From a virus (taxonomy: Duplodnaviria > Caudoviricetes), in IMG/VR virus record IMGVR_UViG_3300036797_000015, positions 1 to 64,000 of that record: DNA of 64,000 bases. One strand, given 5' to 3'. The translations under genes were made by a program, and so were the position numbers. Positions 1 to 12,641 of the stretch are shown piece by piece. The notes below the pieces were generated by a model. The model ran no database searches. It was not told the origin of the DNA and saw nothing but the letters and a program-made list of their open reading frames with translations. Positions within the stretch are counted from its first letter, which is position 1. Every line of letters starts with the position of its first letter.

Positions 1-208
1 TGTGCCAAACAGTTACATCACCCTGGCGGGGGTAGTGCTTGACTACCACCATTGGTAGCTGGGTCTTACCCGATTGCTCTACCAGGGCCTTAGCCTCTGG
101 GTCGGCGTCGATGTCGATGTCTGTATAGGCTACACCACGTTCATCGAGCTTCTGCTTGGTATACTTACATTGAACGCAGTCTTCCCTGCCGTAAACCGTA
201 ACGCCCAC
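1..208 (-). CDS. nrdH: NrdH-like glutaredoxin (runs off the window edge)
   Basis: Manual translation from GTG at 208 with AGGAG SD: MGVTVYGREDCVQCKYTKQKLDERGVAYTDIDIDADPEAK...QLPMVVV...WH; CVQC redox motif typical of NrdH. Confidence 0.9.
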   Translation of the reverse strand, partial: MGVTVYGREDCVQCKYTKQKLDERGVAYTDIDIDADPEAKALVEQSGKTQLPMVVVKHYPRQGDVTVWH

Positions 209-311
209 GATTCTCCTAGTCAAGCTAAGTTACCGTCAACCTACCCGTAGCCTACTCCATTAGGCCTGGTAGGAAGGCCGATTCCGCACCCCTAGAAGCG
301 ATTCTCTGGTG

Positions 312-451
312 AGTTCTCCGGATGGCCGGTATACTGTACCCAGGGACCAGGGCTTTTGGACAGCAGCCCGGCCCAAGGCCCTGACCAGGCGTTATCAGTC
401 CGGTCTAGACTTCTGCCCTGGTCTGGCGTACTTTTGACCTTGGGGAGAACT
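312..451. promoter_or_regulatory. Divergent promoter pair
   Basis: + strand TAGACT-17nt-TACTTT (406-434); - strand TACAGT -10 box (338-333); both carry GCCCTGGTC in the spacer (345-353 inverted, 415-423), with a variant GCCCTGACC at 378-386. Confidence 0.55.
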
Positions 452-820
452 ATGCGTAATCCCTGGTAGAACGACCGTAGACCGGAATGTCGGGTTAGAT
501 GCTTAGGCGAGACCCACTAGACCGGCCAATGCGTGACGTTAAGATCGGCAAAGTCGAGAGGAACCACCCGGCTATGATCGGGAGTAGGCCGCGACCTAGC
601 GGAAAGCCCTGGGCGGGCAACAGATCTGGCGCTAACGGAGTTGCTTGAGAACTAAACAGAGAAATCCTTAGTAGCGGAGGTGCGAACCTCCGTGGTTCCT
701 ACACATCCGCTACATGGTTGTTGTTGGGGCAACGTAAGTTGCGTGCGAGTCTGGGGCTTCGGTCCCAGGCTGGTGCGGGGCGAAGCGTTATTTGCCCTGT
801 TCCCAACACCCTGAGGAGAA
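441..820 (+). ncRNA. Long structured 5' leader / putative ncRNA
   Basis: No credible + strand ORF. Nested helices GGAACCAC(559-566)/GTGGTTCC(692-699), CGGAGGT-GCGA-ACCTCCG, GCAAC-GTAA-GTTGC, GTCTGGGGC-TTCG-GTCCCAGGC; GNRA and UUCG tetraloops. Confidence 0.6.
640..659 (+). promoter_or_regulatory. rrn boxA-like antitermination element
   Basis: GTTGCTTGAGAACTAAACAG closely resembles the actinobacterial rRNA-leader boxA region (GTTGTTTGAGAACTCAA) as recalled. Confidence 0.5.
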
Positions 821-823
821 ACA

Positions 824-1132
824 GTGATCGAGAATCTGGAGAATAGCCTAGCACGATTAAACTTCCCCAAATTGCCTGATAGGGAAGATCGTGTTATCCG
901 GCTAGCCTCTGTACTCTGCGACGTTACGAACGGCCGTGTTGGCCGTAAGTATGACGCAGATGTCCGCAAATCCGCGGTGCTTATCTGGCGTAGTTTAACC
1001 AGTGATGAAAGCGTGTTCGTTAGGCTGCGGCCGCGAACGCTTACTAAGCACGCGAATCTGCTGCTCAGCCAAACGGTTAATCCCGATGCGGCGTATCTCG
1101 CTGGCCTTATAAAAACAGCAATCTCGGAGTAG
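824..1132 (+). CDS. Hypothetical early protein
   Basis: GTG start with GAGGAG SD; TAG stop abuts repeat element. Confidence 0.75.
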   Translation: MIENLENSLARLNFPKLPDREDRVIRLASVLCDVTNGRVGRKYDADVRKSAVLIWRSLTSDESVFVRLRPRTLTKHANLLLSQTVNPDAAYLAGLIKTAISE

Positions 1133-1210
1133 AAGTGCGGCGGTAGCCGGTCTAGTACCGGCTACCTGCGGACTAGCTACCCTGCTTGTCTACCCAACAA
1201 CCAAGAGGAA
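1130..1210 (+). repeat. Class I intergenic element, copy 1
   Basis: TAGAAGTGCGGCG-[GTAGCCGG/CCGGCTAC stem]-CTGCGGACTA-small hairpin-CCCAACAACCAAGAGG. Confidence 0.9.
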
Positions 1211-1218
1211 ACACGAAA

Positions 1219-1470
1219 ATGGCTACACTGGAAGTAAAGCTGAGCGTGGTTAACTGCGGCGAACGCCGGGCCGATAGGCTCTGCGTTGGCGACCTTGTCT
1301 GTCTTGAAGGCACGGTCGCTACCGTCGCGGATGCTACGTTCTGCGGAGCCAACCCTGGCATGATGTATGTGGACTTTTTGGCCACCGCCGAGGATGGCCA
1401 GGAGTGCCGCAAAACGCACTTCGTGCGTCGGGATGAGGCATTCCGAGTCGTGAAGGTGGTCGCAGAATGA
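1219..1470 (+). CDS. Hypothetical early protein
   Basis: ATG after the repeat-borne SD; ATGA overlap with next gene. Confidence 0.75.
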   Translation: MATLEVKLSVVNCGERRADRLCVGDLVCLEGTVATVADATFCGANPGMMYVDFLATAEDGQECRKTHFVRRDEAFRVVKVVAE

Positions 1471-1724
1471 CCATCTACTACCAAGCACGATTCCTGGCTG
1501 AAGGCGGCCCAGCGTTCGATGGGTGTCCAAAGGCCAATCTGCCTGAAGGCACCGAAGTGGATGAAAGCGAAGCGGTGATTATCCGCTACCAGAAAGGTAT
1601 GTGGCAAGTTATCTACGTCAACGCGAACGTCGTGGTGGCAGAGGGCCAGGATATGTACCTGGCAACGAGCTATATGCTTGACTGGGCGCACGCGCTCCAG
1701 GATGAACTGGAGGCAAGCAGATAG
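1467..1724 (+). CDS. Hypothetical early protein
   Basis: Coupled start; TAG stop begins repeat copy 2. Confidence 0.75.
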   Translation: MTIYYQARFLAEGGPAFDGCPKANLPEGTEVDESEAVIIRYQKGMWQVIYVNANVVVAEGQDMYLATSYMLDWAHALQDELEASR

Positions 1725-1812
1725 AAGTGCGGCGGGTACTGGGACTTAGGTCCCAGTGCTCTGCGGACTAACTATCTGGTTAGTACCAAGCAGTACCCAA
1801 CAACCAAGAGGG
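1722..1812 (+). repeat. Class I intergenic element, copy 2
   Basis: TAGAAGTGCGGCG-[GGTACTGGGAC/GTCCCAGTGCT]-CTGCGGACTA-CTAAC/GTTAG hairpin-CCCAACAACCAAGAGG. Confidence 0.9.
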
Positions 1813-1818
1813 AAAGAA

Positions 1819-2496
1819 ATGACTATGACAACAGCACAAAAGCCCGCCAGCGGACGTTCGCTGAAATTCTTCCATGACCTGATCTGGGGCAAGGATGAGC
1901 AAAGCGTGTCTGACTTCCGTGCGAATCTGCCGACAGAGTGGCGGTCGTTGTTTGATCGCTGTATCAGCAGTTTCGCTAACTGCGACCATGAAGGTCTTGG
2001 CCCAGAAGCCATGAACGATTGGATGGCGAGTGAAGAATGGCCGCTGCTGGAGCAATCCGACGCGAGTAAGTTCATTGAGGGCTTGAAGGCTTTGCCCTGG
2101 AAGCAAGGAACTAACCCCGCCAAGGTGCGCGAACCTGTCACCGAAGATGGCATGTACAAGGTTGGCGACACGATCTACAAAGTCCAATGGAACCGGCAGA
2201 AGACTAACCTCTATGCCAAGGTCCTGCGGGTGTCGCGTAACTCGTATGAGGGGAAGCACGAGGTTTGGTTCGATTACGAGTCTGGTGCGATGAAGAAAAT
2301 CTCCGCTAGCGATAAGATGACCTACGAGCAGGCACGAGAGTTTGGTGCTATGTACGGTACGTGCGTTAACTGTGGCAGGTTACTCACCAACGAGCTTTCG
2401 ATAGCTCTTGGTATCGGCCCAGTCTGCGGTGACCGGATGTTCGGTGGCGACTTCAAGTTCATGATCGATGACGCCAAATTGAAGTTAGCCAAATGA
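1819..2496 (+). CDS. DUF6011-like zinc-finger protein
   Basis: C-terminal YGTCVNCGRLLTNELSIALGIGPVCG matches the CxxCGRxLT...SxxxGIGPxC pattern. Confidence 0.75.
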   Translation: MTMTTAQKPASGRSLKFFHDLIWGKDEQSVSDFRANLPTEWRSLFDRCISSFANCDHEGLGPEAMNDWMASEEWPLLEQSDASKFIEGLKALPWKQGTNPAKVREPVTEDGMYKVGDTIYKVQWNRQKTNLYAKVLRVSRNSYEGKHEVWFDYESGAMKKISASDKMTYEQAREFGAMYGTCVNCGRLLTNELSIALGIGPVCGDRMFGGDFKFMIDDAKLKLAK

Positions 2497-2654
2497 AGGT
2501 GAAGGTGACCGCTAGAAAGTATGGCGGAGATGATGCTGCTTCGTGGGCGATATTCCGTAGCGACGCAAGCAGGCCGGTAGTTACCGGCTTGTACCGGAGT
2601 GAGGTAGCCTACTACAAGAAGCAGATTCAAGAGATGGTCGACCAGGAAGGATAG
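2493..2654 (+). CDS. Small hypothetical protein (53 aa, not in ORF track)
   Basis: ATGA-coupled: MKVKVTARKYGGDDAASWAIFRSD...QEG; TAG begins repeat copy 3. Confidence 0.7.
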   Translation: MKVKVTARKYGGDDAASWAIFRSDASRPVVTGLYRSEVAYYKKQIQEMVDQEG

Positions 2655-2740
2655 AGGTGCGGCGATACCTGGTGCTACGGTACCAGGTATCTGCGGACTA
2701 GCTATCCGGCTAGGACAAAGAAAACCCAACAACCAAGAGG
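2652..2740 (+). repeat. Class I intergenic element, copy 3
   Basis: TAGAGGTGCGGCG-[ATACCTGGTGC/GTACCAGGTAT]-CTGCGGACTA-CTAGC/GCTAG hairpin-CCCAACAACCAAGAGG. Confidence 0.9.
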
Positions 2741-2747
2741 AATGAAA

Positions 2748-3935
2748 GTGACAAAACCCCAAGATAGTATCATGAGCAAAATCATGAAGCTGCTGGAGAG
2801 GGCCAATCACCCGAGTACGCCTGAGGCTGAAGCAAAAGCATGTGAAGAAAAAGCAGACGCTTTGATGGCGCAGCACCAGATAGATCGAATGGATCTGAAG
2901 CCAGAAGAGAAGGCCAAGATTATCCAGGACGCCTGGAGCATTCACTTTGGTGTTTCGGGTAAGGCCCACGAATTTGGTAGCGCCATCGAGTCGCTCATGC
3001 GTGCTGTCCTGTCGCATTGTAAGATCAAGATGGACCCTAGGTACAGCTACGGCACTAACGAGAATGGGGACAAGGACTATGGTGTCCGAGTCTTCAAACT
3101 CGTTGGCTTCCCTGAAGATATTGCCTATGCTGAGCGCATCTGGTTCCGAGTCTTCAAAGAGTTTGTGTTTAACGTCAACCCAGGTTGGCGCAAGGACGCC
3201 TCTATAGAGGACAACGCGTATGACTTGGTCAAAGCCAGTATCGACTGGCAGACGATGGTCCTGATGGCGAATAATGCCGGAGATGACCGCATACCCGTGT
3301 CGGAGTTGGAAGTGTTACAGCCGTATGATAAACGGCAGATACCAGTTAAGGGTAATCGTCCGCTGATCAAGGGCATCAATATGTTGCGTGATGCTTACCG
3401 TGCGGAATGCGAACGTCGCGGTGAAGCCTATGAGTACAATAAAGGCGACAAGACCCGTGCGTCGTACAGAAGCAGTTTCGCTATCTCGTTTGCCGGCACG
3501 ATTAAGCGGCGACTGGATGAAATGCGCCAGAAAGCAGAAGAGACTGTCTCTGATCGGGACAAGTACGCGTTGGCACTAGTCGATACAGAAGAGCAGGTGG
3601 AGCGTGAGTTCTACCGGCTGTTCCCCGAGTTTGACCCTGAAATCCGCAAGCGCCAAAGGGATGCTGCGGCCGCTGAGGCTGTGGCTGACTTCCTGGCAAT
3701 GTCGGAAGATGAGCAAGCTTACGTGATCGACTATGTGTCCAAGGAGGAAGCAGAGAATGAGAAACGTTGGCAACGGGCAGCCGGTCGGGCTAGGCGCAAT
3801 TACGGGACGATACGTGGTCGAGACTATGGCGACGTTCAGGACCGGGCCTGGAAGGCTGGCCACCAAGCTGCGTCCTCAGTTAATCTGAGGGATGATGCGG
3901 AGGTTAAGCGTGAGACCCGTAAGGGTATCCGATGA
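2748..3935 (+). CDS. DUF2786-domain protein
   Basis: N-terminal KIMKLLERANHPSTPEAEAKACEEKADALMAQHQID; GTG 2748 is better spaced from the SD than ATG 2742. Confidence 0.75.
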   Translation: MTKPQDSIMSKIMKLLERANHPSTPEAEAKACEEKADALMAQHQIDRMDLKPEEKAKIIQDAWSIHFGVSGKAHEFGSAIESLMRAVLSHCKIKMDPRYSYGTNENGDKDYGVRVFKLVGFPEDIAYAERIWFRVFKEFVFNVNPGWRKDASIEDNAYDLVKASIDWQTMVLMANNAGDDRIPVSELEVLQPYDKRQIPVKGNRPLIKGINMLRDAYRAECERRGEAYEYNKGDKTRASYRSSFAISFAGTIKRRLDEMRQKAEETVSDRDKYALALVDTEEQVEREFYRLFPEFDPEIRKRQRDAAAAEAVADFLAMSEDEQAYVIDYVSKEEAENEKRWQRAAGRARRNYGTIRGRDYGDVQDRAWKAGHQAASSVNLRDDAEVKRETRKGIR

Positions 3936-4042
3936 CCGCATATTCCGTCCCCAGGTTCTGGATGGTCGCGTGGGTCCACGCGATGCTCGAATGTGTGAGA
4001 TTGCTGATGCTTCTGGCAATCGCGCTGGAGATAATGTACTAA
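3932..4042 (+). CDS. Small hydrophobic peptide (36 aa)
   Basis: ATGA overlap; MTAYSVPRFWMVAWVHAMLECVRLLMLLAIALEIMY. Confidence 0.5.
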   Translation: MTAYSVPRFWMVAWVHAMLECVRLLMLLAIALEIMY

Positions 4043-4136
4043 GGAGGTGATCATGCGAAGTGCCCGCCAGATATGCAGCCCTGGCGGGTATTTCGGGTGC
4101 CGTACCTCGACACTCGACCCAACAACCAAGAAGGAA
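4041..4136 (+). repeat. Class II intergenic element, copy 1
   Basis: AAGGAGGTGA-ATGCGAAGTGC-[CCGCCAG/CTGGCGG]-GTATTT, TCGGGTG/CACTCGA hairpin, CCCAACAACCAAGAAGG. Confidence 0.85.
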
Positions 4137-4148
4137 ACTAGAAGAACC

Positions 4149-4682
4149 ATGAGCAAGCAAGAAGATGTGCGTAAGTTCACCAATCTGGACAATGACACCT
4201 CAATCGAAACCTGGAGTATAGGCGAGATTGCTGAAGGTGTTATGGCCAGAGTCAAAGAAACGACTGGTGAAGATGTCAATAGAGCGTATGGACAAAGTCT
4301 GTGGGGCCTGGAACGCAAACTCGCTGAGTTTGTCAAGAACCTTGACCTGGAGACACCCAAACCCTCTATGGTGTTCCGTGGCGCTAGCTACTGGTCGCCT
4401 GACACGATCGACGCTTGGGTTCAGCTGCTGAATGAAGACAAAGCCGCCAAATTGGCCAAGAACTGGTCCAAGGAGGAATTGGTCCAAAAGGCAGCATCGT
4501 TTATGGCTAGGGAGTCTGCCTACAGCGATACCAAGATTGCCAATCGTGACGCCTACAATCGTGCCGAAGCCGTTATGGAGTTTATCCAGACCCTGGATGA
4601 ATTTGGCATTGTTGACGAGACGATGGAAGATGCGATGCGGACTATCGTGAACAGGTTCAAGAGTAAGTCGGGCCTGCGATGA
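4149..4682 (+). CDS. Hypothetical early protein (alternative in-frame start at 4053)
   Basis: ATG after repeat SD; an upstream strong SD+ATG reads through the repeat in frame. Confidence 0.8.
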   Translation: MSKQEDVRKFTNLDNDTSIETWSIGEIAEGVMARVKETTGEDVNRAYGQSLWGLERKLAEFVKNLDLETPKPSMVFRGASYWSPDTIDAWVQLLNEDKAAKLAKNWSKEELVQKAASFMARESAYSDTKIANRDAYNRAEAVMEFIQTLDEFGIVDETMEDAMRTIVNRFKSKSGLR

Positions 4683-4780
4683 AGCCTAACGGAGCATTCC
4701 GCGGTGCGTTCTTTGGGGCTTTGGTTGGTATCTTTATATTCTGGGTACCTGCCATAGTCCTGATGCTTACCCACCACTAG
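4679..4780 (+). CDS. Small membrane peptide (33 aa)
   Basis: ATGA overlap; MKPNGAFRGAFFGALVGIFIFWVPAIVLMLTHH, single TM segment. Confidence 0.6.
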   Translation: MKPNGAFRGAFFGALVGIFIFWVPAIVLMLTHH

Positions 4781-4866
4781 GGGTGAATATGCTAGGTGCC
4801 CTGGGGCTTAACGTCCCAGGGTATCTAGGGTATCAAACCCGATACCTACCCAACAACCAAGAGGAA
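4778..4866 (+). repeat. Class II intergenic element, copy 2
   Basis: AGGGGTG-ATGCTAGGTGC-[CCTGGGGC/GTCCCAGG]-GTATCT, GGTATC/GATACC hairpin, CCCAACAACCAAGAGG. Confidence 0.9.
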
Positions 4867-4872
4867 AAGAAA

Positions 4873-5172
4873 ATGTCTGGAATCTACGCAAAGATCAAGA
4901 GGCACAAGGGCAATAAGGTCTGGTACAGTCTTGAGTTCAAGATCATAGCTATCGGCGAGGAATCGCGGTGGCCGTGCTTGGATATGGCCAGATTCAACCT
5001 GCCGACTGAAGCCCGTGCTTGCGCTGAAGAGCGCGGCTGGCACGTGGTGGAGACCTGGCGGGAAGCCTATGATCACGCCCAGATTGGTCCGTGGGATGGT
5101 GTGTACCGTGCCTATGAGCCACCAAGGGTGGTCGGTCCTGACTATGTAGAGGAACGGGCCAATGTCCGCTGA
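4873..5172 (+). CDS. Hypothetical early protein (alternative in-frame start at 4789)
   Basis: ATG after repeat SD. Confidence 0.75.
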   Translation: MSGIYAKIKRHKGNKVWYSLEFKIIAIGEESRWPCLDMARFNLPTEARACAEERGWHVVETWREAYDHAQIGPWDGVYRAYEPPRVVGPDYVEERANVR

Positions 5173-5509
5173 GATCGTGACCGCAGGCTTCTGCCCGCAG
5201 TACTTCAGCCAGTTCCGCGTTTTGAGCAATCAAAATGATACATATTACTCAGTAACGCTAAATGGCACTGGGCCAGCATTCTGTACGTGTAAAGCGTATG
5301 AGTTTGCTAAAATGTATGACAAGACCTGTAAGCATATTAAACGGGTCTGGGAACATGGCTGCTTATATAACCCGCAATGGAAGGATGCGGGGCCAAATGA
5401 TCTGGATAAAGTTGGCGTTGAGATTGTCGCTACCGATACCAGAAACAGCTACCCTAAGAATTGCCCCGGTTGTCATGAGGAGATGATAGCCGTGAAGATA
5501 GCAGTATAG
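5162..5509 (+). CDS. SWIM-type zinc-finger protein
   Basis: CTCKAY...TCKHI (CxC..CxH) plus a C-terminal CPGC. Confidence 0.75.
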   Translation: MSAEIVTAGFCPQYFSQFRVLSNQNDTYYSVTLNGTGPAFCTCKAYEFAKMYDKTCKHIKRVWEHGCLYNPQWKDAGPNDLDKVGVEIVATDTRNSYPKNCPGCHEEMIAVKIAV

Positions 5510-5595
5510 GAGACTATGCCAGGTGCCCTGAAGCCAACCACTTCAGGGTATCTGGGGTATCGTTCCTAGATGCCTACCCAACAACCAAGAAGGAA
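5507..5595 (+). repeat. Class II intergenic element, copy 3
   Basis: AGGAG-ATGCCAGGTGC-[CCTGAAG/CTTCAGG]-GTATCT, GGTATC/GATGCC hairpin, CCCAACAACCAAGAAGG. Confidence 0.9.
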
Positions 5596-5597
5596 TC

Positions 5598-6086
5598 ATG
5601 AGAACAAAAGCAAGGAAAGCATTTCTACACTCAGCGTTCACGACCGCGCTTGAAGGCGGAATTGGCTACTGGTCGGAGTGCGAGGAATATGTTTGGTCTA
5701 AGCCAAAAGCCGGGCCAACCAAAGAGCGCACTGAAGACCTGGATGGCTTTCATGCTTGGATAACAAACAACGAGAGTGACTGGGGTGTCGGTAAGGCGTA
5801 CCAACCAAATACAACGAGCAAGTACGCTGTAGATGGTTGGGTTGAGTTAGAGCCTGACGCCACTTTGGTCATTGACATTGACGTTGTCGAGCGTGGAGTC
5901 AATATGCTGGTTGATGCGGTAGTCGCCGCGACCAAGTCGGAAGACCCAGAAGCGCCATTTAACAACAAGTACCTCCGACAGTTCGTGGAGGCTTGGCTAA
6001 CTGATGGCGACGGTGGGGATTACGACGCTAATGGTGCCGACCTGGCTATCCAGCTGGGGCTGTTCGGTGAGGTCGTGTACGCATGA
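5598..6086 (+). CDS. Hypothetical early protein
   Basis: SD plus ATG; TTALEGGIGYWS segment; coupled to next gene. Confidence 0.8.
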   Translation: MRTKARKAFLHSAFTTALEGGIGYWSECEEYVWSKPKAGPTKERTEDLDGFHAWITNNESDWGVGKAYQPNTTSKYAVDGWVELEPDATLVIDIDVVERGVNMLVDAVVAATKSEDPEAPFNNKYLRQFVEAWLTDGDGGDYDANGADLAIQLGLFGEVVYA

Positions 6087-6334
6087 GAATGTTTATTTTA
6101 GGCCTCATCGGTATAGCCTCGTTCAGCGGTGGAGTGCTTGGTTTCAGCTCAAATGACGAGATGAACCAGCGCGTAGTAATTCCGCCAATGACACCGACCG
6201 TTACGGTTACGGCACCGGTGGTGACAGATACAATGCCGGAGCACGAGGATAACCCGCCAAGCCGGTGGGGGACTAGTCCTACGCCGACTCTGCCTTGTCC
6301 CGTGACACTAAACTGCGGGAAGGAGATGGTGTGA
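6083..6334 (+). CDS. Secreted/membrane protein with Pro/Thr-rich tail
   Basis: N-terminal hydrophobic stretch, PT-rich body. Confidence 0.65.
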   Translation: MRMFILGLIGIASFSGGVLGFSSNDEMNQRVVIPPMTPTVTVTAPVVTDTMPEHEDNPPSRWGTSPTPTLPCPVTLNCGKEMV

Positions 6335-6549
6335 CTAACCCCAACCTGGTGTATGTTGAGTTCCCAGGAGGTAACCGAGCGCCTGGCGGTTACATCGTGC
6401 CTGCTTACTTAACTGGCAGAACCAGCGGTCGTCAGAGCCAAGTAGTGCTGACGGCATCGACAAATGGCCATCGCTATGCATGGCCGCAATGGGTACGGAA
6501 TGGGCAGATACTTACCGACGAGGAAGTTTCTGAATTAGGCCCGGACTAG
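6331..6549 (+). CDS. Hypothetical protein
   Basis: GTGA overlap, AAGGAG SD. Confidence 0.65.
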   Translation: MTNPNLVYVEFPGGNRAPGGYIVPAYLTGRTSGRQSQVVLTASTNGHRYAWPQWVRNGQILTDEEVSELGPD

Positions 6550-6574
6550 CCTAGAACGGAGTAAGATAGAGCGC

Positions 6575-6657
6575 ATGCGAGGTGCCTATAACGTACCCAA
6601 ATACGTTATAGGTATCTCGGGTGATGAATCTGTCACCCGACCAACAACCAAAGAGGA
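6575..6657 (+). repeat. Class II intergenic element, copy 4
   Basis: ATGCGAGGTGC-[CTATAACGTA/TACGTTATAG]-GTATCT, TCGGGTGAT/GTCACCCGA hairpin, CCAACAACCAAAGAGG. Confidence 0.9.
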
Positions 6658-6663
6658 AAACAG

Positions 6664-7290
6664 ATGGCAAAGAATGTGAAAAACCCAAGCGGTTACCATT
6701 CAGCTGGCAAAACGCTGCAAGAGAAGGCTGCCAATTTCGGCAGTTTCGTGAAACAGCACGGTTGGACTGGCAGTTTCAAAACTGCTGAAAACGGTGATGT
6801 GAATCTGCTTGCGCAGCGGGGTGACAGTGAGTCCATTGAGATCTGTTGGCTTAAGGGTGGTGGTGGTTCAGTCAGATACACGCTGGCGGGTACCACCGTA
6901 AAGTGCCATAACGTAAGTGCGGCCGCTAAAATTGCCCAAGAGCCACCAGATATCAATAAGGTCCAGAAAGCAGTGCGTAAACGGCATGTTGCTCCTGAGA
7001 ATGGTGAGATCACGCCCGATATACTCGATGGGCTTCAAGGGTCACTTCCGTTCGATCGTGAGTCCACTGACCAAGAGATCAAACTGGCGTTGAAGGATAG
7101 AAACATCGCCTGGATCAATCGGCTCAGCGGTACGGTATACCAAGCTGTAGTGGGGGTGTCCAAGCAGTTTAAGGTCATCCGCGCTGAGGACCCAGTAAGG
7201 GACCAAATCAGTTTCGTGGAGGTAACTCCGCGAGGTATCCTGCCGCAGTTCCGTGCGGTCTATCTCAACAGTATAGTGAGTGTGGGCTGA
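6664..7290 (+). CDS. Hypothetical protein
   Basis: 208-aa ORF after repeat SD, TGATG-coupled to the helicase. Confidence 0.8.
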   Translation: MAKNVKNPSGYHSAGKTLQEKAANFGSFVKQHGWTGSFKTAENGDVNLLAQRGDSESIEICWLKGGGGSVRYTLAGTTVKCHNVSAAAKIAQEPPDINKVQKAVRKRHVAPENGEITPDILDGLQGSLPFDRESTDQEIKLALKDRNIAWINRLSGTVYQAVVGVSKQFKVIRAEDPVRDQISFVEVTPRGILPQFRAVYLNSIVSVG

Positions 7291-9224
7291 TGGCAAAGCG
7301 GTTGTGGTCGATGGGCCTTGGCACGGGTAAGTCTGGTACAGACGTTATCTGGGTGAAACAAAGCAATTATGACCCAGATGCGAATGCCTCTCTGAAAGCG
7401 AATCTGCCTGGCCCTGCTAGGTGGAACGGTGATGAGAAGCGTTTTGAGTTCCCAGTTCACTGGGACGCCTGTACTGGCGCTCGTCGGGTAGCTGACAAGT
7501 TCGATGTACTGCTGCGTATCGCGCCTAGCCTACGAGAGTGGGCTGAGGTTGAGAAAGCAAGGCAGGCAACCATTCCCGATGTTCAGTCGATGGAATTGGT
7601 TGACTTGCCAGCAGTGCGAGAAGGCTACCCTGCGCTTTGGGAGGCTATCACGTCCAGACCGTTCCAGACCGTGGGCGCTGCTTTTGCGGCGCGTAATCGT
7701 TCGTGTCTGATAGCGGACCAACCTGGACTTGGTAAGACTCTCCAGAGTATCGCGGCTGTGATTGAGTCTGGTAGAACCGGACCCATATTGGTAGTGGCCC
7801 CAAAATCCGCTGCCAAACTCACCTGGCCTCAGGAGTTAGCACGTTGGGTACCTGGCGATTTGGTTTATGTGCTTGGTAGCCATCTTAAAGCGGCCGAACG
7901 AGTGCAACTTGCCAAAGACTTCCGTACCGGATCTGGCAATGGGCACGGCCGTAAAGATGGCAAGCGTATTTGGCTTATCACTTCGCCGCACTATGTACGG
8001 ATACGAGCCGAGGTCGATGACTGGGGCAAGTATATGTACGAGAATGGCAAGAAGATCATCAATCCCGTTGGCGAGGCAGTAATGGAACTGTTCGACGTTA
8101 AATGGTCTGCGGTGATCGTTGATGAGTCGCACCAAACGCTAGCTGGTGCTAGGGGCAACAAAAAGAAACAGTCTTCTCAGCGTCTTGGGCTTGGAGCCTT
8201 AGACGTTATCGACGGAGGATTGCGGATTGCGTTGTCTGGAACACCGTTCAGAGGTAAGGAAGAATACCTCTGGGGCCAGCTCAACTGGTTACGCCCTGAT
8301 TTGTATCGTAGCTTCTGGCAGTGGATCAAAGATCACTTTGACTGCTACCAAGACAGGTACGGTATGACAATCGGCAGAATGGTGGACGCTGAGGGTATGT
8401 ATCGTGAAGCCAGCTCTGTGATGATTCGGCGCACGAAGGATGAGGTTGCTAAAGACTTGCCCGCCAAGCAGTACGGTGGGTGGCCTTTGGAAGCCGGCAA
8501 TCCCGAGTCGCCGATAGCTGTGTGGCTTGATATGGAACCGAAACAGGGTAAAGCCTACCGGGACATGGTCAAACACGCAGCCGCAGAGCTGGAGGGTGGT
8601 ACGCTACTGACGAACGGCATCCTGGCGGAGTTAACGCGCCTGAAGCAGTTTGCTGGTAGCTACGGCAAGCTTGAAGGTGATAAGTACGTTCCGATTCTGC
8701 CGTCCAATAAGTTTGACTGGACGGTAGAGTTTCTAGACGAGCGTGGCATCACCGACAAGTACGAGCCTGACGCGCCTAAAGTGGTGATAGCGTCTCAGTT
8801 CGCTCAGCTGATCAATTGCTTCGCTGGTGCCTTAAAGGATATGGGAATTGAAGCCCACGTCTTTACGGGAGCCACGAGCGACAAGGACAGAGAGCGGATA
8901 AAGGACGACTGGCAGAATAACCCTGAGAGTCATGTGAGGGTGCTTCTGCTTACTACAACCGCTGGCGGCGTGTCGCTGACTCTGGATGCTGCGGATGATC
9001 TAATCATTCTCGATGAGACGTGGAATACGTCTGATCAAGAGCAACTGGAGGATAGGCTCCACCGCCTGTCGCGTATGCACCAGGTGACAATCTGGAAAGT
9101 GTTTAGCCGCGATACAATTGAGGAATCAATCGCGGTTGCCAACCTAGGGAAGGAGTATAACATCAAGTCGATCATTGATGGCGAGCGAGGCATTCCGTTC
9201 GCTAAACAGATGGTTGGCGGATGA
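7290..9224 (+). CDS. SNF2-family (SF2) DNA helicase
   Basis: ADQPGLGKT (motif I), VIVDESHQ (DExH), LSGTP, C-terminal GGVSLTL and QLEDRLHR. Confidence 0.92.
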   Translation: MAKRLWSMGLGTGKSGTDVIWVKQSNYDPDANASLKANLPGPARWNGDEKRFEFPVHWDACTGARRVADKFDVLLRIAPSLREWAEVEKARQATIPDVQSMELVDLPAVREGYPALWEAITSRPFQTVGAAFAARNRSCLIADQPGLGKTLQSIAAVIESGRTGPILVVAPKSAAKLTWPQELARWVPGDLVYVLGSHLKAAERVQLAKDFRTGSGNGHGRKDGKRIWLITSPHYVRIRAEVDDWGKYMYENGKKIINPVGEAVMELFDVKWSAVIVDESHQTLAGARGNKKKQSSQRLGLGALDVIDGGLRIALSGTPFRGKEEYLWGQLNWLRPDLYRSFWQWIKDHFDCYQDRYGMTIGRMVDAEGMYREASSVMIRRTKDEVAKDLPAKQYGGWPLEAGNPESPIAVWLDMEPKQGKAYRDMVKHAAAELEGGTLLTNGILAELTRLKQFAGSYGKLEGDKYVPILPSNKFDWTVEFLDERGITDKYEPDAPKVVIASQFAQLINCFAGALKDMGIEAHVFTGATSDKDRERIKDDWQNNPESHVRVLLLTTTAGGVSLTLDAADDLIILDETWNTSDQEQLEDRLHRLSRMHQVTIWKVFSRDTIEESIAVANLGKEYNIKSIIDGERGIPFAKQMVGG

Positions 9225-9532
9225 CCACTCTCGTGGTGACTGGCGCTGGCCTGGCCTGCTTTATAGTAGGTTGGGTCAGCGCCACAGTCACATACCGCGT
9301 CAGACCGTCGCTCAGAACATTGCTTAGCCCGGCTATACAGTCAGAAGCCATAGCAGACTTCATGACGCCAATTGTAAACCTGGAGGAATACGAGGCAAAC
9401 CGAAAATCAATGCACCGACAGTTAGTACAGTCAGGCAGACGTACTGCGCGACTAGATGGCGGCCCAACTGCTAAGGTGTCGAAAATGCGGAAGCGTAAAC
9501 GGTATTCGCGGTCGCTTAGAGATCAGGCATAA
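9221..9532 (+). CDS. Membrane-anchored hypothetical protein
   Basis: N-terminal TM segment, basic C-terminus, ATGA overlap. Confidence 0.6.
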   Translation: MTTLVVTGAGLACFIVGWVSATVTYRVRPSLRTLLSPAIQSEAIADFMTPIVNLEEYEANRKSMHRQLVQSGRRTARLDGGPTAKVSKMRKRKRYSRSLRDQA

Positions 9533-9637
9533 ATCGTGAAAAAGTCAGGACAAATTCACCAAAACCGTAGCGTATCCCCTGGGAACCGGGTAGGGTCGGA
9601 TAGGTAAGGCCAGAATCGTAGGACGATAGGAGTCAAA

Positions 9638-10291
9638 GTGGCCGAAGTGAACCGGAGGTTTGGACCGGACAATCCATCAGAGGCGCAGAAGTCTCTGGCG
9701 AAATATATCCGCGAGCAGAAGGGTTTTGACATCACGGATGCCGCGGTGTCGGCGTCCTTTACCTGGCACGGGGAGTGGCAATCTTCCCCCGAGCGGCACG
9801 CCGAGCTGGAGTTGGTTCGCCAGCAGGCCCGTGAGGATCGGGAGAAGGCACGCGAGGCAAGCAAGGCTGAAGCCGATGAGAAGCGTAAGGCCAAGGAAGC
9901 CGAGCGCGAATCAAAGCGTGCTGAGCGCGAGCAACAGGCCGAGGCAAAGCAGGCCGAGCGCGCCCAGAAGGAACAGGAACGCGAAGCAAAGCGCGTCCAG
10001 CGCGAGCAGGAGCGTGAGCAGAAGGAAGCAGAACGGGCGCAGCGCGCTACCGAGCGTGAAGAGAAGCGCAAGCAACAGGAAGAGGAACGCGCCCAGAAGC
10101 AGCAAGAACGTGAAGCTGCTCGTGCGGCCAAGGAAGCAGAGCGCGAAGCCAAGAAGGCAAGCTCTGGCGCTGACGGTGACGACAGCACTTCCGCTACTCC
10201 TGCTGCGGCCGAGAATGGCCGCGAGTCTCGTCGGCGTATTCGTCGGCGTGACGACGCTGATACGGTTGCTGTCAGCGAATCAAGTTTCTAG
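9638..10291 (+). CDS. Protein with long E/R/K/Q/A charged helix
   Basis: AGGAG SD; ~110 aa of EREAKR/ERAQ-type repeats. Confidence 0.8.
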   Translation: MAEVNRRFGPDNPSEAQKSLAKYIREQKGFDITDAAVSASFTWHGEWQSSPERHAELELVRQQAREDREKAREASKAEADEKRKAKEAERESKRAEREQQAEAKQAERAQKEQEREAKRVQREQEREQKEAERAQRATEREEKRKQQEEERAQKQQEREAARAAKEAEREAKKASSGADGDDSTSATPAAAENGRESRRRIRRRDDADTVAVSESSF

Positions 10292-10296
10292 ACCAA

Positions 10297-10470
10297 TGGT
10301 TGTTGGCCAGACCCCTGAACGCTCACGAGGCGTCCAGGGTGCTCTGGTGAGTAGCGCGGACGGTAGACCCATGGGAAGTGGGATCGTGTGCACCCGTTCG
10401 ACTCGGGCATTCCGCGCTACTCTCCAGGGTAACCCTCTTGGCCGAGGTTACCCCAGACAGAAAGACTGGG
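10297..10470 (+). ncRNA. Structured RNA with tRNA-like core (10349-10426)
   Basis: 12-bp stem GAGTAGCGCGGA/TCCGCGCTACTC followed by T-CCA; T-arm-like CCCG-TTCGACT-CGGG; flanking hairpins CCAGA..CCCTG/CAGGG..TCTGG and GGGTAAC/GTTACCC. Confidence 0.6.
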
Positions 10471-10475
10471 AAGAT

Positions 10476-10805
10476 ATGCCAATCCATTTCGATGTAGGCG
10501 GTGTAGCCGTTAAGGCTGATACCGTATCAGAAGGTGCGGAGCTACTACGCGAGTTGCTAGCTCCAGTGAAGCAAAAGGCTAAGTCTAACGGAAGTGCGCC
10601 TACAAACGGCAAGCTTAAGCGCGATGAGGTTCTACCCGCCACGCTGGCGTATATTGGCAACTCTGCTAAGGGCAGGACTACCAAGCAAATAGCGCATTAC
10701 TTCGCTATCAGTTCTGCTACCGCTTCAAGCAGGCTACAGACGTTACGGAGCCAGGGCTTGATTAATGTGCCAGAGAAGCGCGGCGGGTATTGGACGGCAG
10801 CATGA
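10476..10805 (+). CDS. Winged helix-turn-helix DNA-binding protein
   Basis: TTKQIAHYFAISSATASSRLQTLRSQGLI; true start is the ATG inside the spurious 9660 ORF. Confidence 0.75.
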   Translation: MPIHFDVGGVAVKADTVSEGAELLRELLAPVKQKAKSNGSAPTNGKLKRDEVLPATLAYIGNSAKGRTTKQIAHYFAISSATASSRLQTLRSQGLINVPEKRGGYWTAA

Positions 10806-11059
10806 AGTCTATCCAAGTAATACTTAGCTGTATGTATAAAGGTTGTACAACTAAGTCAGATCCTGTTGATGCACACGAGATAGATACTTATGAATACCAT
10901 GATGCGCCAAGCGACGGCATCACATTTTGTCAGCCTAAAGATTGGTGGCACGATACGTTGTATGGCCATATCGTCACGTGTCCAGAGCATAAGCAGGAAT
11001 ACTTAGAACGACGATCTAGCGAACAATGGCGCGACAACCATATCGAATGGAAGTTCTAA
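10802..11059 (+). CDS. Hypothetical protein (Cys/His)
   Basis: ATGA overlap; C..C and CPEH. Confidence 0.7.
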   Translation: MKSIQVILSCMYKGCTTKSDPVDAHEIDTYEYHDAPSDGITFCQPKDWWHDTLYGHIVTCPEHKQEYLERRSSEQWRDNHIEWKF

Positions 11060-11367
11060 TGAGTATTGCCCTTGAACGAGTGATCCGCTGCGATATGTGC
11101 CACACGAATGTGGGGAAGCCGGTAGCAGACGGACCTACCTCTGAGGAACTTGCCAAGTCGCTTGAGGACGATTTACTCATGCTTCTGCGCAAACCCGACG
11201 GTACCGAGTTCAAGGTCTGCGGTAGGTGCTTCCTGAACCATCCTGACTGGCAGCTAAGCAAGTCGCAGCTAGCGGAGGACGAAATTGTAGACGAGTTACC
11301 GCCAGGCAAATATTGGCCTGAAGGTGACCTTGGCGACGATCCAGATGGTGATCTGGATGCGGATTAA
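11059..11367 (+). CDS. Zinc-finger hypothetical protein
   Basis: TAATG coupling; CDMC...CGRC. Confidence 0.75.
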   Translation: MSIALERVIRCDMCHTNVGKPVADGPTSEELAKSLEDDLLMLLRKPDGTEFKVCGRCFLNHPDWQLSKSQLAEDEIVDELPPGKYWPEGDLGDDPDGDLDAD

Positions 11368-11521
11368 TAGGCCAACCTGGAATCCTCTCCAGGTTGTTGG
11401 GAAGTGGCGGCGTGCTAGGCGTTACAGTCTAGCACGTCGTCACGCAAATGATGCGGCCCATATAGAGTGGGCAAGTGCCTTGGCCGGCAATACACGAAAG
11501 GACCGAAGTGGCAAGAGCTAA
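11357..11521 (+). CDS. Small basic hypothetical protein
   Basis: Fills the gap between coupled genes. Confidence 0.5.
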   Translation: MRINRPTWNPLQVVGKWRRARRYSLARRHANDAAHIEWASALAGNTRKDRSGKS

Positions 11522-11786
11522 AAGTATCCAAGCAGAGCGCAATAAGCGCGGCCATAAGCGTTCGCACGTAGCGCAGTTAAACGACAGGACGCTAGCGAAC
11601 GCTTATAACCACGGATTGCCTTGGGTGGATTCAGACGTGGAAACGTTGGCGAATCTGATCGCTAAGAACTCATCGACGTTCGATATGGCGATGTCCCTGG
11701 GCCGCTCGTACTACTCGACGCAATATGCTCGTGCGCATATCAGTTTCGCCCTACGGCACGCCAAGACCTTTAGGAAGCTACTGTGA
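11508..11786 (+). CDS. Hypothetical protein (possible HTH)
   Basis: AAAGGA SD before GTG; STFDMAMSLGRSYYS segment. Confidence 0.6.
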   Translation: MARAKSIQAERNKRGHKRSHVAQLNDRTLANAYNHGLPWVDSDVETLANLIAKNSSTFDMAMSLGRSYYSTQYARAHISFALRHAKTFRKLL

Positions 11787-11932
11787 CTGTCAAAGTAGTA
11801 ATCACATTCGATAATGCTGATGATGAAGTGCAAGCATTGGCTATACGGAAATGGGTTGAAGACGCTATGCCTGTTGGGCTAGTTAATCCGCCTGTAGCAG
11901 TGGTATTGACGCAGCGACCGGAGAGGCACTAG
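11783..11932 (+). CDS. Small hypothetical protein (49 aa)
   Basis: GTGA overlap; MTVKVVITFDNADDEVQALAIRKWVEDAMP... Confidence 0.6.
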   Translation: MTVKVVITFDNADDEVQALAIRKWVEDAMPVGLVNPPVAVVLTQRPERH

Positions 11933-11933
11933 G

Positions 11934-12641
11934 TTGGCAGACATTGGGAACCAAAACATCCAGGCGACAATGGAGGCTTTGGCTTGCCGCGAGACTGCGG
12001 AGTATATCATCAGCCACGAGCAGCTATATGTGGCGGAACAAGTTGAGGGTGCCTCCGAGATAATTGACTGGTCTCTAGGCAAAGCGCCAAAGAACGGTCT
12101 ATGTCTCGAATTTGGCATAGGGTTTGGCCGAACGCTCAAGCGAATCGCTGCACAACGCTATGTCCACGGGTTTGACAGTTTCAAAGGTCTACCGGAAGCC
12201 TGGCGCTCTGGACTACCTAAAGGCACTTTCAGCAATGCCGGTATGGTCAAAGAACAGATTGTAACTAAACTTCACAACTTACATGACGAGGATGCCAGTC
12301 GTGGTGGAGAGATACATGTTGGTTGGTTCAATGAAACGCTGCCAAAGTGGATTGAATATTACCAGTTACAGCTAGAGCGTGGCATTGACTATATCCATCT
12401 TGACTCAGACCTCTACAGTTCCGCGGTGACCATCCTTGAAGGTGTTAAGGAATACCTCAAGCCGGGTAGCGTCATCCTGTTTGATGAGTACTGGAACTAT
12501 CCCGGGTGGAAGCTAGATGGGCACGGAGAACACGCCGCGCTAATGGACTGGAGTATTCCCGATGTTGCTTGGGAGTACATAGGTTACAATCCTATTGGGC
12601 AAGAAGTAGCAATTAGAATGAAGAGGAATCGTGACAAATAA
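11934..12641 (+). CDS. TylF/MycF-like class I SAM-dependent (sugar O-)methyltransferase
   Basis: LEFGIGFG, GFDSFKGLPEAW, GWFNETLP, IHLDSDLYSS, ILFDEY motifs. Confidence 0.85.
   Translation: MADIGNQNIQATMEALACRETAEYIISHEQLYVAEQVEGASEIIDWSLGKAPKNGLCLEFGIGFGRTLKRIAAQRYVHGFDSFKGLPEAWRSGLPKGTFSNAGMVKEQIVTKLHNLHDEDASRGGEIHVGWFNETLPKWIEYYQLQLERGIDYIHLDSDLYSSAVTILEGVKEYLKPGSVILFDEYWNYPGWKLDGHGEHAALMDWSIPDVAWEYIGYNPIGQEVAIRMKRNRDK

Follow-up and report, generated by a model that had tools for sequence, protein, structure and literature searches.

Genomic Context and the Repeat Family

The DNA analysed here, to which we will refer as “the window”, comprises the first 64 kb of the virus record IMGVR_UViG_3300036797_000015 (Duplodnaviria; Caudoviricetes), and the present work concerns a family of repeated, folded cassettes located at the junctions between small genes near its beginning. 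The phage genome is complete at 73,825 bases (CheckV on the full IMG/VR record), its public sequencing match is one soil metagenome (DNA, probably the source sample; no RNA run was among the public runs listed), and all sizeable open reading frames (ORFs) of the window lie on the + strand. The encoded proteins include an SNF2 helicase, a DnaE-type polymerase, a primase-polymerase and a Cas4-like nuclease. The closest named relatives are the Mycobacterium phages Onyinye, Leopard and Aikoy (genus Onyinyevirus; host M. smegmatis); a nucleotide search of GenBank phages, in which the only match (70%) covered the helicase region, led to Onyinye. The window and these three phages have a common gene order, in which a reverse-strand glutaredoxin gene is followed by a roughly 550-nt non-coding stretch, a series of small genes spaced by ~100-nt gaps, and the helicase gene. 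By analogy with other mycobacteriophages, the cassette-bearing region would correspond to the early region, presumably expressed as a single transcript. Pfam and PHROGs searches with ten early proteins returned only DUF6011, SWIM and families of unknown function. Between the reverse-strand gene and the first early gene, window positions 215-820 (~600 nt) hold only short, scattered ORFs; this stretch is probably non-coding and probably carries the early promoters, and a sigma-70 scan of its + strand found no promoter.

The motif ATGCNARGTGCC occurs in four exact copies in the window (4053, 4789, 5516 and 6575), all on the + strand, whereas 0.12 matches are expected by chance and none of 100 shuffled sequences reached four; the four-copy repeat that a first-pass annotation of this DNA had reported is therefore real. 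Each copy opens a hairpin of 15-18 bp (hairpin 1). Its base is constant (CNARGUGCC / GGUAUYUNG, two G.U pairs included), while the upper stem varies in sequence among the four copies and yet remains paired, so that both folds and alignment bear out the fixed base and covarying top noted earlier. In every copy of this kind (class II) hairpin 1 is followed by a second hairpin (hairpin 2) and by the leader CCAACAACCA with a Shine-Dalgarno (SD) sequence, and the copies fold far better than shuffled sequence (z -3.9 to -7.3). The leader CCAACAACCAARRRGRA is present in seven copies genome-wide, all on the + strand between 1194 and 6657; three stand behind repeats of a related form (class I) and four behind class II repeats, and an eighth, diverged copy lies ahead of the first gene at 824. 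Seven to eight cassettes, all co-directional, are thus confined to the first 7 kb of the 73.8-kb phage. An Rfam scan of window positions 1-12000 (E up to 1) gave no relevant family, and the promoter/terminator scan found neither a sigma-70-type promoter nor a U-tract terminator at any element.

Helix Anatomy

The class II comparison set contains 20 distinct copies from the window and its relatives, and covariation was assessed on an alignment of ten sequences from four phages. The first-pass annotation had presented each copy as two hairpins headed by an SD and an ATG of their own. The minimum-energy folds of nearly every copy describe instead a single long irregular helix of 21-29 pairs. Next outward from hairpin 1, an invariant G stands opposite another invariant G, the first of them being the G of the “ATG”. 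It is followed by a 3-bp helix (B), in which the two bases before the mismatched G and one more are paired with the three bases after the second G (strand B'), and, beyond a small internal loop, by a lower stem of 4-9 bp (X:Y). Arm X is the purine tract by the upstream stop codon that had been taken for an SD, and its partner, arm Y, is a copy-specific pyrimidine tract. The class II elements of the window are laid out as follows.

Class II element 1, 4040-4151, + strand (from folds and the exact motif): stop TAA 4040-4042; arm X GAGGUG 4044-4049; B helix CAU 4052-4054; mismatch G 4055; hairpin 1 4056-4095; mismatch G 4096; B' GUG 4097-4099; arm Y UACCUC 4103-4108; alternative hairpin 2 4096-4114; leader and SD 4119-4135; start ATG 4149.
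Class II element 2, 4778-4875, + strand: stop TAG 4778-4780 of a 33-aa membrane-like ORF; arm X GGGU 4781-4784; B helix UAU 4788-4790; mismatch G 4791; hairpin 1 4792-4828; mismatch G 4829; B' GUA 4830-4832; arm Y ACCC 4837-4840; hairpin 2 4829-4846; leader and SD 4850-4866; start ATG 4873.
Class II element 3, 5507-5600, + strand: stop TAG 5507-5509 within arm X UAGGAG 5507-5512; B helix UAU 5515-5517; mismatch G 5518; hairpin 1 5519-5555; mismatch G 5556; B' GUA 5557-5559; arm Y UUCCUA 5563-5568; hairpin 2 5556-5574; leader and SD 5578-5594; start ATG 5598.
Class II element 4, 6547-6666, + strand: stop TAG 6547-6549; arm X GAUAGA 6565-6570; B helix CAU 6574-6576; mismatch G 6577; hairpin 1 6578-6619; mismatch G 6620; B' GUG 6621-6623; arm Y UCUGUC 6629-6634; hairpin 2 6620-6637; leader and SD 6641-6657; start ATG 6664 (208-aa gene).

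The stop codon of element 1 places its beginning at 4040 and not, as previously given, at 4041. In the ten-sequence alignment, 98.6% of the cells are paired and 10 of the 14 pairs show double changes; none of 500 shuffles matched the percentage paired, the double-change count or the covariation score, the count of further pair types was matched by three of the 500, and slid-register controls were all far lower than the observed pairing. The A of the “ATG” takes part in this pattern, forming an A-U pair in eight aligned sequences and a G-C pair in two. Among the 20 copies, the B helix appears as CAU/GUG (nine), UAU/GUA (five), UGU/GCA (three), GUU/GAU (two) and AGU/GCU (one), and the codon is accordingly AUG in 14, GUG in four and UUG in two, the opposite base compensating every time. 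The 3' partner strand GGGU is conserved as much as ATGC, something that a start codon would not call for. Class I elements share the U-G-C / G.G core with class II.

The lower stem is also specific to each copy, as the flanks of a given copy pair better with each other than mismatched flanks do (0/20000 permutations with 16 copies; 4/20000 with 20 copies). G.U pairs make up 61 of the 413 predicted pairs, one of them being kept in all ten aligned copies, and in 16/16 copies the + strand RNA exceeds its complement in stability (mean 12.6 kcal/mol); stems that are G.U-rich, favoured on the + strand and covarying speak against a signal at the DNA level. A UUCG apical loop caps hairpin 1 in 5 of 21 elements. 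Overall, a role as paired strands of a single long helix better explains the “ATG” and “SD” letters.

Hairpin 2 and the Two Exclusive Folds

The stretch after hairpin 1 folds as hairpin 2 in every copy, its first paired base being the first base past hairpin 1 in 20/20 copies, and its arms are again copy-specific (0/20000 permutations, and 1/20000 with the 20-copy set). As the second G, strand B' and some of arm Y are used by both hairpin 2 and the long helix, the two folds are mutually exclusive. The earlier description was accordingly right in placing a second hairpin and a leader with SD in every copy, but the hairpins do not form an independent pair, because hairpin 2 competes with the extension of hairpin 1. 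In the predicted folds, the free RNA of window copies 1, 2 and 4 favours the long helix, and masking of the 5' arm costs 3.7-7.9 kcal/mol, while copy 3, in which the two states differ little in energy, adopts the two-hairpin fold when free; with the 5' arm masked, hairpin 2 forms flush with hairpin 1 in 4/4 window copies. The three-arm layout is also found in class I elements and, with unrelated sequence, in hairpins of the Nocardia phage P3.1. In nine of ten copies, with the 5' arm masked as well as with it free, the leader and SD are predicted to be 72-85% unpaired, the exception being the copy of contig L019 (0.60 unpaired when free, 0.43 when masked). The upstream stop codon lies 4-10 nt before the B helix in 11/19 copies, the commonest spacing being exactly 8 nt; in elements at position 4, it is 27-46 nt away.

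Other Elements of the Early Region

Besides the class II copies, the early region contains three class I elements of the same family and a diverged first element.

Class I elements, + strand, ~1125-1221, 1718-1821 and 2648-2750 (span 1125-2750): TAG stop, ARGUG, CG, 2x2 loop, variable stem of 10-12 bp and CUGCGGACU, then an alternative small hairpin and the CCAACAACCAAGAGG leader as in class II.
First, diverged element, 712-826, + strand: ahead of the first early gene (GTG 824) and preceded by AUGGUUGUUGUUGGGG.

The diverged first element is kept in the 71-kb IMG/VR relative (L025/L026) and in Onyinye. The sequence AUGGUUGUUGUUGGGG (+ strand, window 712-728) is complementary to the CCCAACAACC leaders, and is conserved directly ahead of the first cassette, not only in the window but also in the IMG/VR relative and Onyinye (L026:4881-4896; L027 about 4745-4760); a second copy at window 10296-10306 adjoins a tRNA-like element near 10.3 kb. 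AUGGUUGUUGUUGGGG may act as an antisense regulator of all early leaders. Hydrophobic ORFs of 33-42 aa (window 3932-4042 and 4679-4780; L026:7168-7284; Onyinye gene 58) overlap the preceding gene by ATGA and, in all three phages, end exactly at the 5' arm of a cassette.

Distribution in Related Phages

Cassettes were found at syntenic junctions in Onyinye, Leopard, Aikoy and about eight metagenomic relatives. Onyinye holds seven of them at equivalent junctions, four of which belong to class II, with feet CATGCGAAGTGCC, TGTGCTAGGTGGG, TGTGCTAGGTGCA and CATGCGGGGTGGT; Leopard and Aikoy are nearly identical to it at the cassette sites. The 71-kb IMG/VR relative contains five, mostly class I-like, and contig L019 has one. 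Homologues of the 208-aa protein encoded at 6664 led to Logan, JGI and ENA contigs (L150, L151, L153, L155, L157 and L158) with many more cassettes, and elements orthologous to element 4 precede the 208-aa gene in nine relatives. Distant helicase relatives (L021-L024) showed ordinary promoters and no such cassette, and a metagenome scan using the helicase gave nothing beyond distant or already collected loci. Within IMG/VR, an exact search with the leader returned 11 single matches, all of them unrelated ribosome-binding sites, and a gapped class II pattern returned 116 stretches, none of which was a true relative after filtering.

At three junctions of L150 and one of L026, the intergenic slot equivalent to that of a cassette is occupied by a tRNA-like minihelix, followed by a hairpin and the same leader. 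These minihelices consist of a closing stem of 5-6 bp stacked on a T-arm, and are located, together with one in the window, as follows.

tRNA-like minihelix, L150:700-760.
tRNA-like minihelix, L150:2682-2742.
tRNA-like minihelix, L150:3065-3100.
tRNA-like minihelix, L026:8178-8225.
tRNA-like minihelix, window 10349-10426 (after 10291).

The loops in L150 and L026 read UUCAAGC, UUCAAUU, UUCGACU and UGCGAGU, so that three of the four conform to UUCRA and the fourth has UGCGA. ARAGORN called no tRNA genes in the window and five loci, the minihelices included.

In Nocardia phage P3.1 (L033), the gaps at 427-507, 1273-1372, 1638-1716, 2840-2931 and 6030-6120 hold long irregular hairpins which open at a CTAG stop and have a competing downstream hairpin, some of them with AGUUGC like the class I-like copies of Onyinye. 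The cassette design therefore reaches a wider actinophage group.

Two further observations concern the homologues of the 6664 gene. In the IMG/VR relative, an ORF for an HNH-type endonuclease (L026:8817-9197) lies between the cassette and the homologue, and it opens with MARNVKDPS, the same first residues as the 6664 gene, as if it had been inserted a few codons in. In addition, public gene calls start two homologues (L158:862-1569, P0003; L151:1149-1808, P0010) at a GTG located in hairpin 1 or in the strand that follows it, adding 11-28 spurious residues, whereas all the homologue alignments begin at the leader ATG.

A Proposed Processing and Stabilising Signal

Our preferred reading, held tentatively and with slightly less than even confidence, is that the cassettes serve as processing and stabilising signals of the ribonuclease III (RNase III) type in a polycistronic early mRNA. 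Each repeat would be an intercistronic signal of one long early message, read as + strand RNA. A host double-strand-specific endonuclease, most likely RNase III, would cut close to the mismatched Gs at the foot of hairpin 1; as in T7, the enzyme would have to come from the host, since neither an RNase III nor a double-stranded RNA-binding domain encoded by the phage was found. The upstream message would end in hairpin 1, which would block 3' exonucleases, and the downstream message would start at the first base past hairpin 1. Arm Y, released from X, would refold with a third arm (Z) into hairpin 2, and this hairpin, flush with the new 5' end, would block 5'-end-dependent RNases; 3' of it would come the unstructured CCAACAACCA leader, the SD and the start codon. 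The “ATG” and “SD” letters would thus be present because they are strands of the helix. The earlier suggestion of an RNA-level signal tied to the downstream ribosome-binding site is upheld in this respect, and its link with RNA processing appears plausible, but the loading of ribosomes by an SD-ATG is not supported by the comparison, as discussed below.

Several features agree with such a role. With 21-29 pairs, a G.G mismatch and internal loops, the helices have the length and form of an irregular substrate of about two turns (at least 20 bp); as in the sites of phages T7 and SP82, they are located between co-directional cistrons with no promoter or terminator of their own, and the covariation is found on the mRNA strand. 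tRNA-like structures are another known kind of cleavage signal, recognised by RNase P and RNase Z. The interchange of minihelix and hairpin cassette at the gene junctions of relatives suggests a shared job, and a role in processing.

Some points weigh against this interpretation. The foot of the helix (UGC...G.U...GGG) is conserved beyond the known needs of RNase III, and could mark the site of a specific protein. A double-stranded cut would also remove hairpin 1 from the upstream message. One of the minihelices scored 21.9 bits (E 0.58) against tRNA-Sec, below the Rfam threshold. Finally, the exclusive X:Y and Y:Z pairings, together with a stop codon at ~8 nt from the B helix (11/19), could indicate a switch that senses translation.

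Alternative Explanations

That switch constitutes the most serious rival, unlikely as we consider it. A ribosome reaching the upstream stop would melt the lower stem and the B helix, allowing Y:Z to form hairpin 2, while the long helix would persist when the upstream gene is not translated; the two states would differ in cleavage, decay or 30S standby binding, and the fate of each message would be set by the translation of the preceding cistron. The copy-specific and mutually exclusive X:Y and Y:Z pairings point in this direction, as does the position of the near stops, mostly at 8 nt, since a ribosome terminating so close to the B helix would open X:Y; the TAG belongs to the conserved repeat in class I, and the same three-arm layout recurs in P3.1 with unrelated sequence. 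However, leader and SD are equally open in both states and no translational output is visible, the position-4 stops lie 27-46 nt upstream, the tRNA-like elements of the relatives keep their downstream hairpin without any competition, and the near stops may merely reflect tight gene packing. A combination of both ideas seems quite unlikely: the ribosome ending at the stop of arm X would select between the long helix, cuttable by RNase III, and the uncuttable pair of hairpins 1 and 2, with AUGGUUGUUGUUGGGG possibly adding a layer in trans on all CCAACAACC leaders. If true, an early message would be severed from its upstream neighbour, or destroyed, depending on whether that neighbour is translated. 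The conserved foot might otherwise be the operator of a sequence-specific RNA-binding protein, from phage or host, regulating jointly the translation or stability of the early cistrons (e.g., early shut-off). The U-G-C / G.G / G.U foot is invariant or nearly so in 10/10 aligned copies of four phages, with the G.U and G.G kept while the upper stem is free to vary, it is common to classes I and II, and the 10-nt leader is invariant too. This proposal is nonetheless improbable, as a perfect stem of 15-19 bp far exceeds the needs of an operator, the scan of ten early proteins detected no RNA-binding domain, and one protein would not fit three foot classes plus tRNA-like substitutes in equivalent slots.

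The model of the first-pass annotation, in which an upstream SD-NUG loads or restarts a ribosome whose passage across the hairpins yields extended isoforms or short peptides and opens the RNA, is very improbable. It is true that the codon is always AUG, GUG or UUG in the 20 copies and never CUG, that three window copies have a stop 6-13 nt upstream, a distance suited to termination-reinitiation, and that in two copies the frame runs open into the next gene. The ORFs themselves are as originally listed, with in-frame fusions from 4053 and 4789, a 17-codon ORF at 5516-5569 and a 34-codon ORF at 6575-6679. However, a strong and well-spaced SD, claimed for three copies, is found only in copy 1, where it is perfect (GGAGG, 5 nt, AUG); in copy 3 the AUG follows AGGAG by only 3 nt, the GGGGUG of copy 2 is weak, and copy 4 lacks an SD. 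Over the 20 copies, a GGAG-like tract occurs in ~8, mostly at 1-3 nt from the codon, so that a strong SD is missing in ~12 or stands too near. The opposite base compensates in every codon variant, the 3' strand is equally conserved, and all three codon positions are conserved, unlike in coding sequence. The ORFs from the NUG have 7-34 codons and follow no rule in length or frame, fusion in frame being seen only in the first two window copies; in L150, the gene homologous to that at 4149 lies behind a tRNA-like element and starts at the leader ATG, lacking the extension. Furthermore, the codon lies inside a helix of about -40 kcal/mol, and nothing needs exposing, because the downstream SD is open in either state in nine of ten copies. 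A dedicated ribosome-loading SD-ATG is thus not supported, and the outcomes of the upstream ORFs look random; some initiation at the NUG may nevertheless occur, all three codons being able to initiate.

Partial terminators or attenuators grading expression along the early operon can hardly be considered probable. High stability, a GC-rich composition and, in several cases, UUCG loops characterise the hairpins, which stand just past stop codons; moreover, in Adephagia, a phage of cluster K, a 17-base stem between genes 90 and 91 marks the end of transcription, for which the authors weigh termination or processing (PMC11373665). On the other hand, no U tract follows either hairpin (hairpin 1 is followed by GGGUG or GGGUA, hairpin 2 by ACCCAACAACC), the terminator scan was negative at the elements, and eight serial terminators without internal promoters would starve the downstream helicase and replication genes. 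A signal at the DNA level, whether a cruciform or a promoter with an inverted-repeat operator like the extended start-associated sequences (ESAS) of cluster K, is extremely improbable. ESAS are likewise inverted repeats just 5' of a conserved start-associated sequence (SAS), and are now read as SigA promoters with an operator (PMC11373665), but the stems of the cassettes covary and keep no single sequence, 15% of their pairs are G.U and would be C.A mismatches on the other strand, and neither a -35/-10 pair nor the SAS consensus was found. Two other candidates were dropped: TIGR-Tas arrays, whose units are short tandem guide arrays with box C/D motifs, and stop-codon readthrough or recoding of the selenocysteine insertion sequence (SECIS) type, raised by the stop at ~8 nt before the helix, since the frames after the stop follow no rule.

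Novelty and Significance

The sequence family is not described in Rfam or in the literature searched, where the one mention of Onyinye is in a table of host ranges (PMC8263002). Elements of this kind are already known, both from the processing hairpins of phage early operons and from the start-associated repeats with upstream stem-loops of clusters K and M. Since 2011, repeated motifs by gene starts have been reported from several clusters of mycobacteriophages, with their function still called unclear (PMC3203893; PMC11373665; PMC12699233). In this sense, the present family provides unusually clean comparative evidence that one such system acts as folded mRNA and not as DNA. Its presence in a cultivable phage (Onyinye, on M. 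smegmatis mc2 155) makes the processing model directly testable. From the annotation point of view, the public calls P0003 and P0010, which start inside the hairpin, indicate that N-termini are sometimes mis-annotated in this phage group. If the two-state design proved functional, it would represent a compact link of message processing to the translation of the preceding gene.

Comparison with Known Systems

The best-known signals of this type are the RNase III sites of the T7 early operon (R0.3, R0.5, R1, R1.1 and R1.3), which have the same size and form as the helices of 21-29 pairs with internal loops described here. Sites for Bs-RNase III are also reported in the early mRNA of Bacillus phage SP82 (Panganiban and Whiteley, 1983, as cited in PMC4838370). 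As in T7 and SP82, the elements of the window are repeated irregular hairpins of ~two turns, with internal loops, related in sequence to one another, placed between co-directional early genes of a lytic phage and each followed by the ribosome-binding site of the next gene. A host enzyme does the cutting in those systems, and cutting by the host is predicted for the cassettes, which have no sequence relation to them. The cassettes differ further in their exclusive hairpin 2, starting at the first base past hairpin 1, in the stop codon carried by the 5' arm, in a helix foot (G.G / G.U) and a CA-rich 10-nt leader that are both invariant and, in relatives, in their tRNA-like substitutes. Bacterial mRNAs are likewise protected by stabilising hairpins, such as the 5' stem-loops of the ompA type, and the repetitive extragenic palindromic (REP) and other intercistronic hairpins at 3' ends. 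Hairpins 1 and 2 occupy positions in which they would cap, respectively, the 3' end of the upstream message and the 5' end of the downstream one; in the cassettes, both caps would belong to one repeated unit, sharing a strand with the proposed cleavage helix.

Among mycobacteriophages, the CR3 and CR4 repeats of cluster M resemble the cassettes in being short conserved repeats between genes of the non-structural arm with upstream stem-loops, according to PMC7953290 (citing Pope et al., 2014); they belong to another phage lineage, and the likeness noted is one of description. The SAS and ESAS of cluster K are closer in layout, as they also accompany non-structural genes of mycobacteriophages with unusually long gaps, their function being likewise unproven, and consist of a strongly conserved, SD-containing sequence a few bases before the start, with an inverted repeat of variable spacer upstream in a subset (PMC3203893; PMC12699233; PMC11373665). 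The 13-bp SAS consensus GGGATAGGAGCCC gave no match in the window at up to 2 mismatches, its place being taken by CCAACAACCA and the SD. Nor do the cassettes contain the 17-bp conserved repeats with SigA -35/-10 hexamers that define ESAS, as their stems differ from copy to copy and show no promoter-like site. Whereas the arms of ESAS are conserved 17-bp sequences that are read at the DNA level, those of the cassettes covary, are G.U-rich and free of promoter hexamers, and are read at the RNA level.

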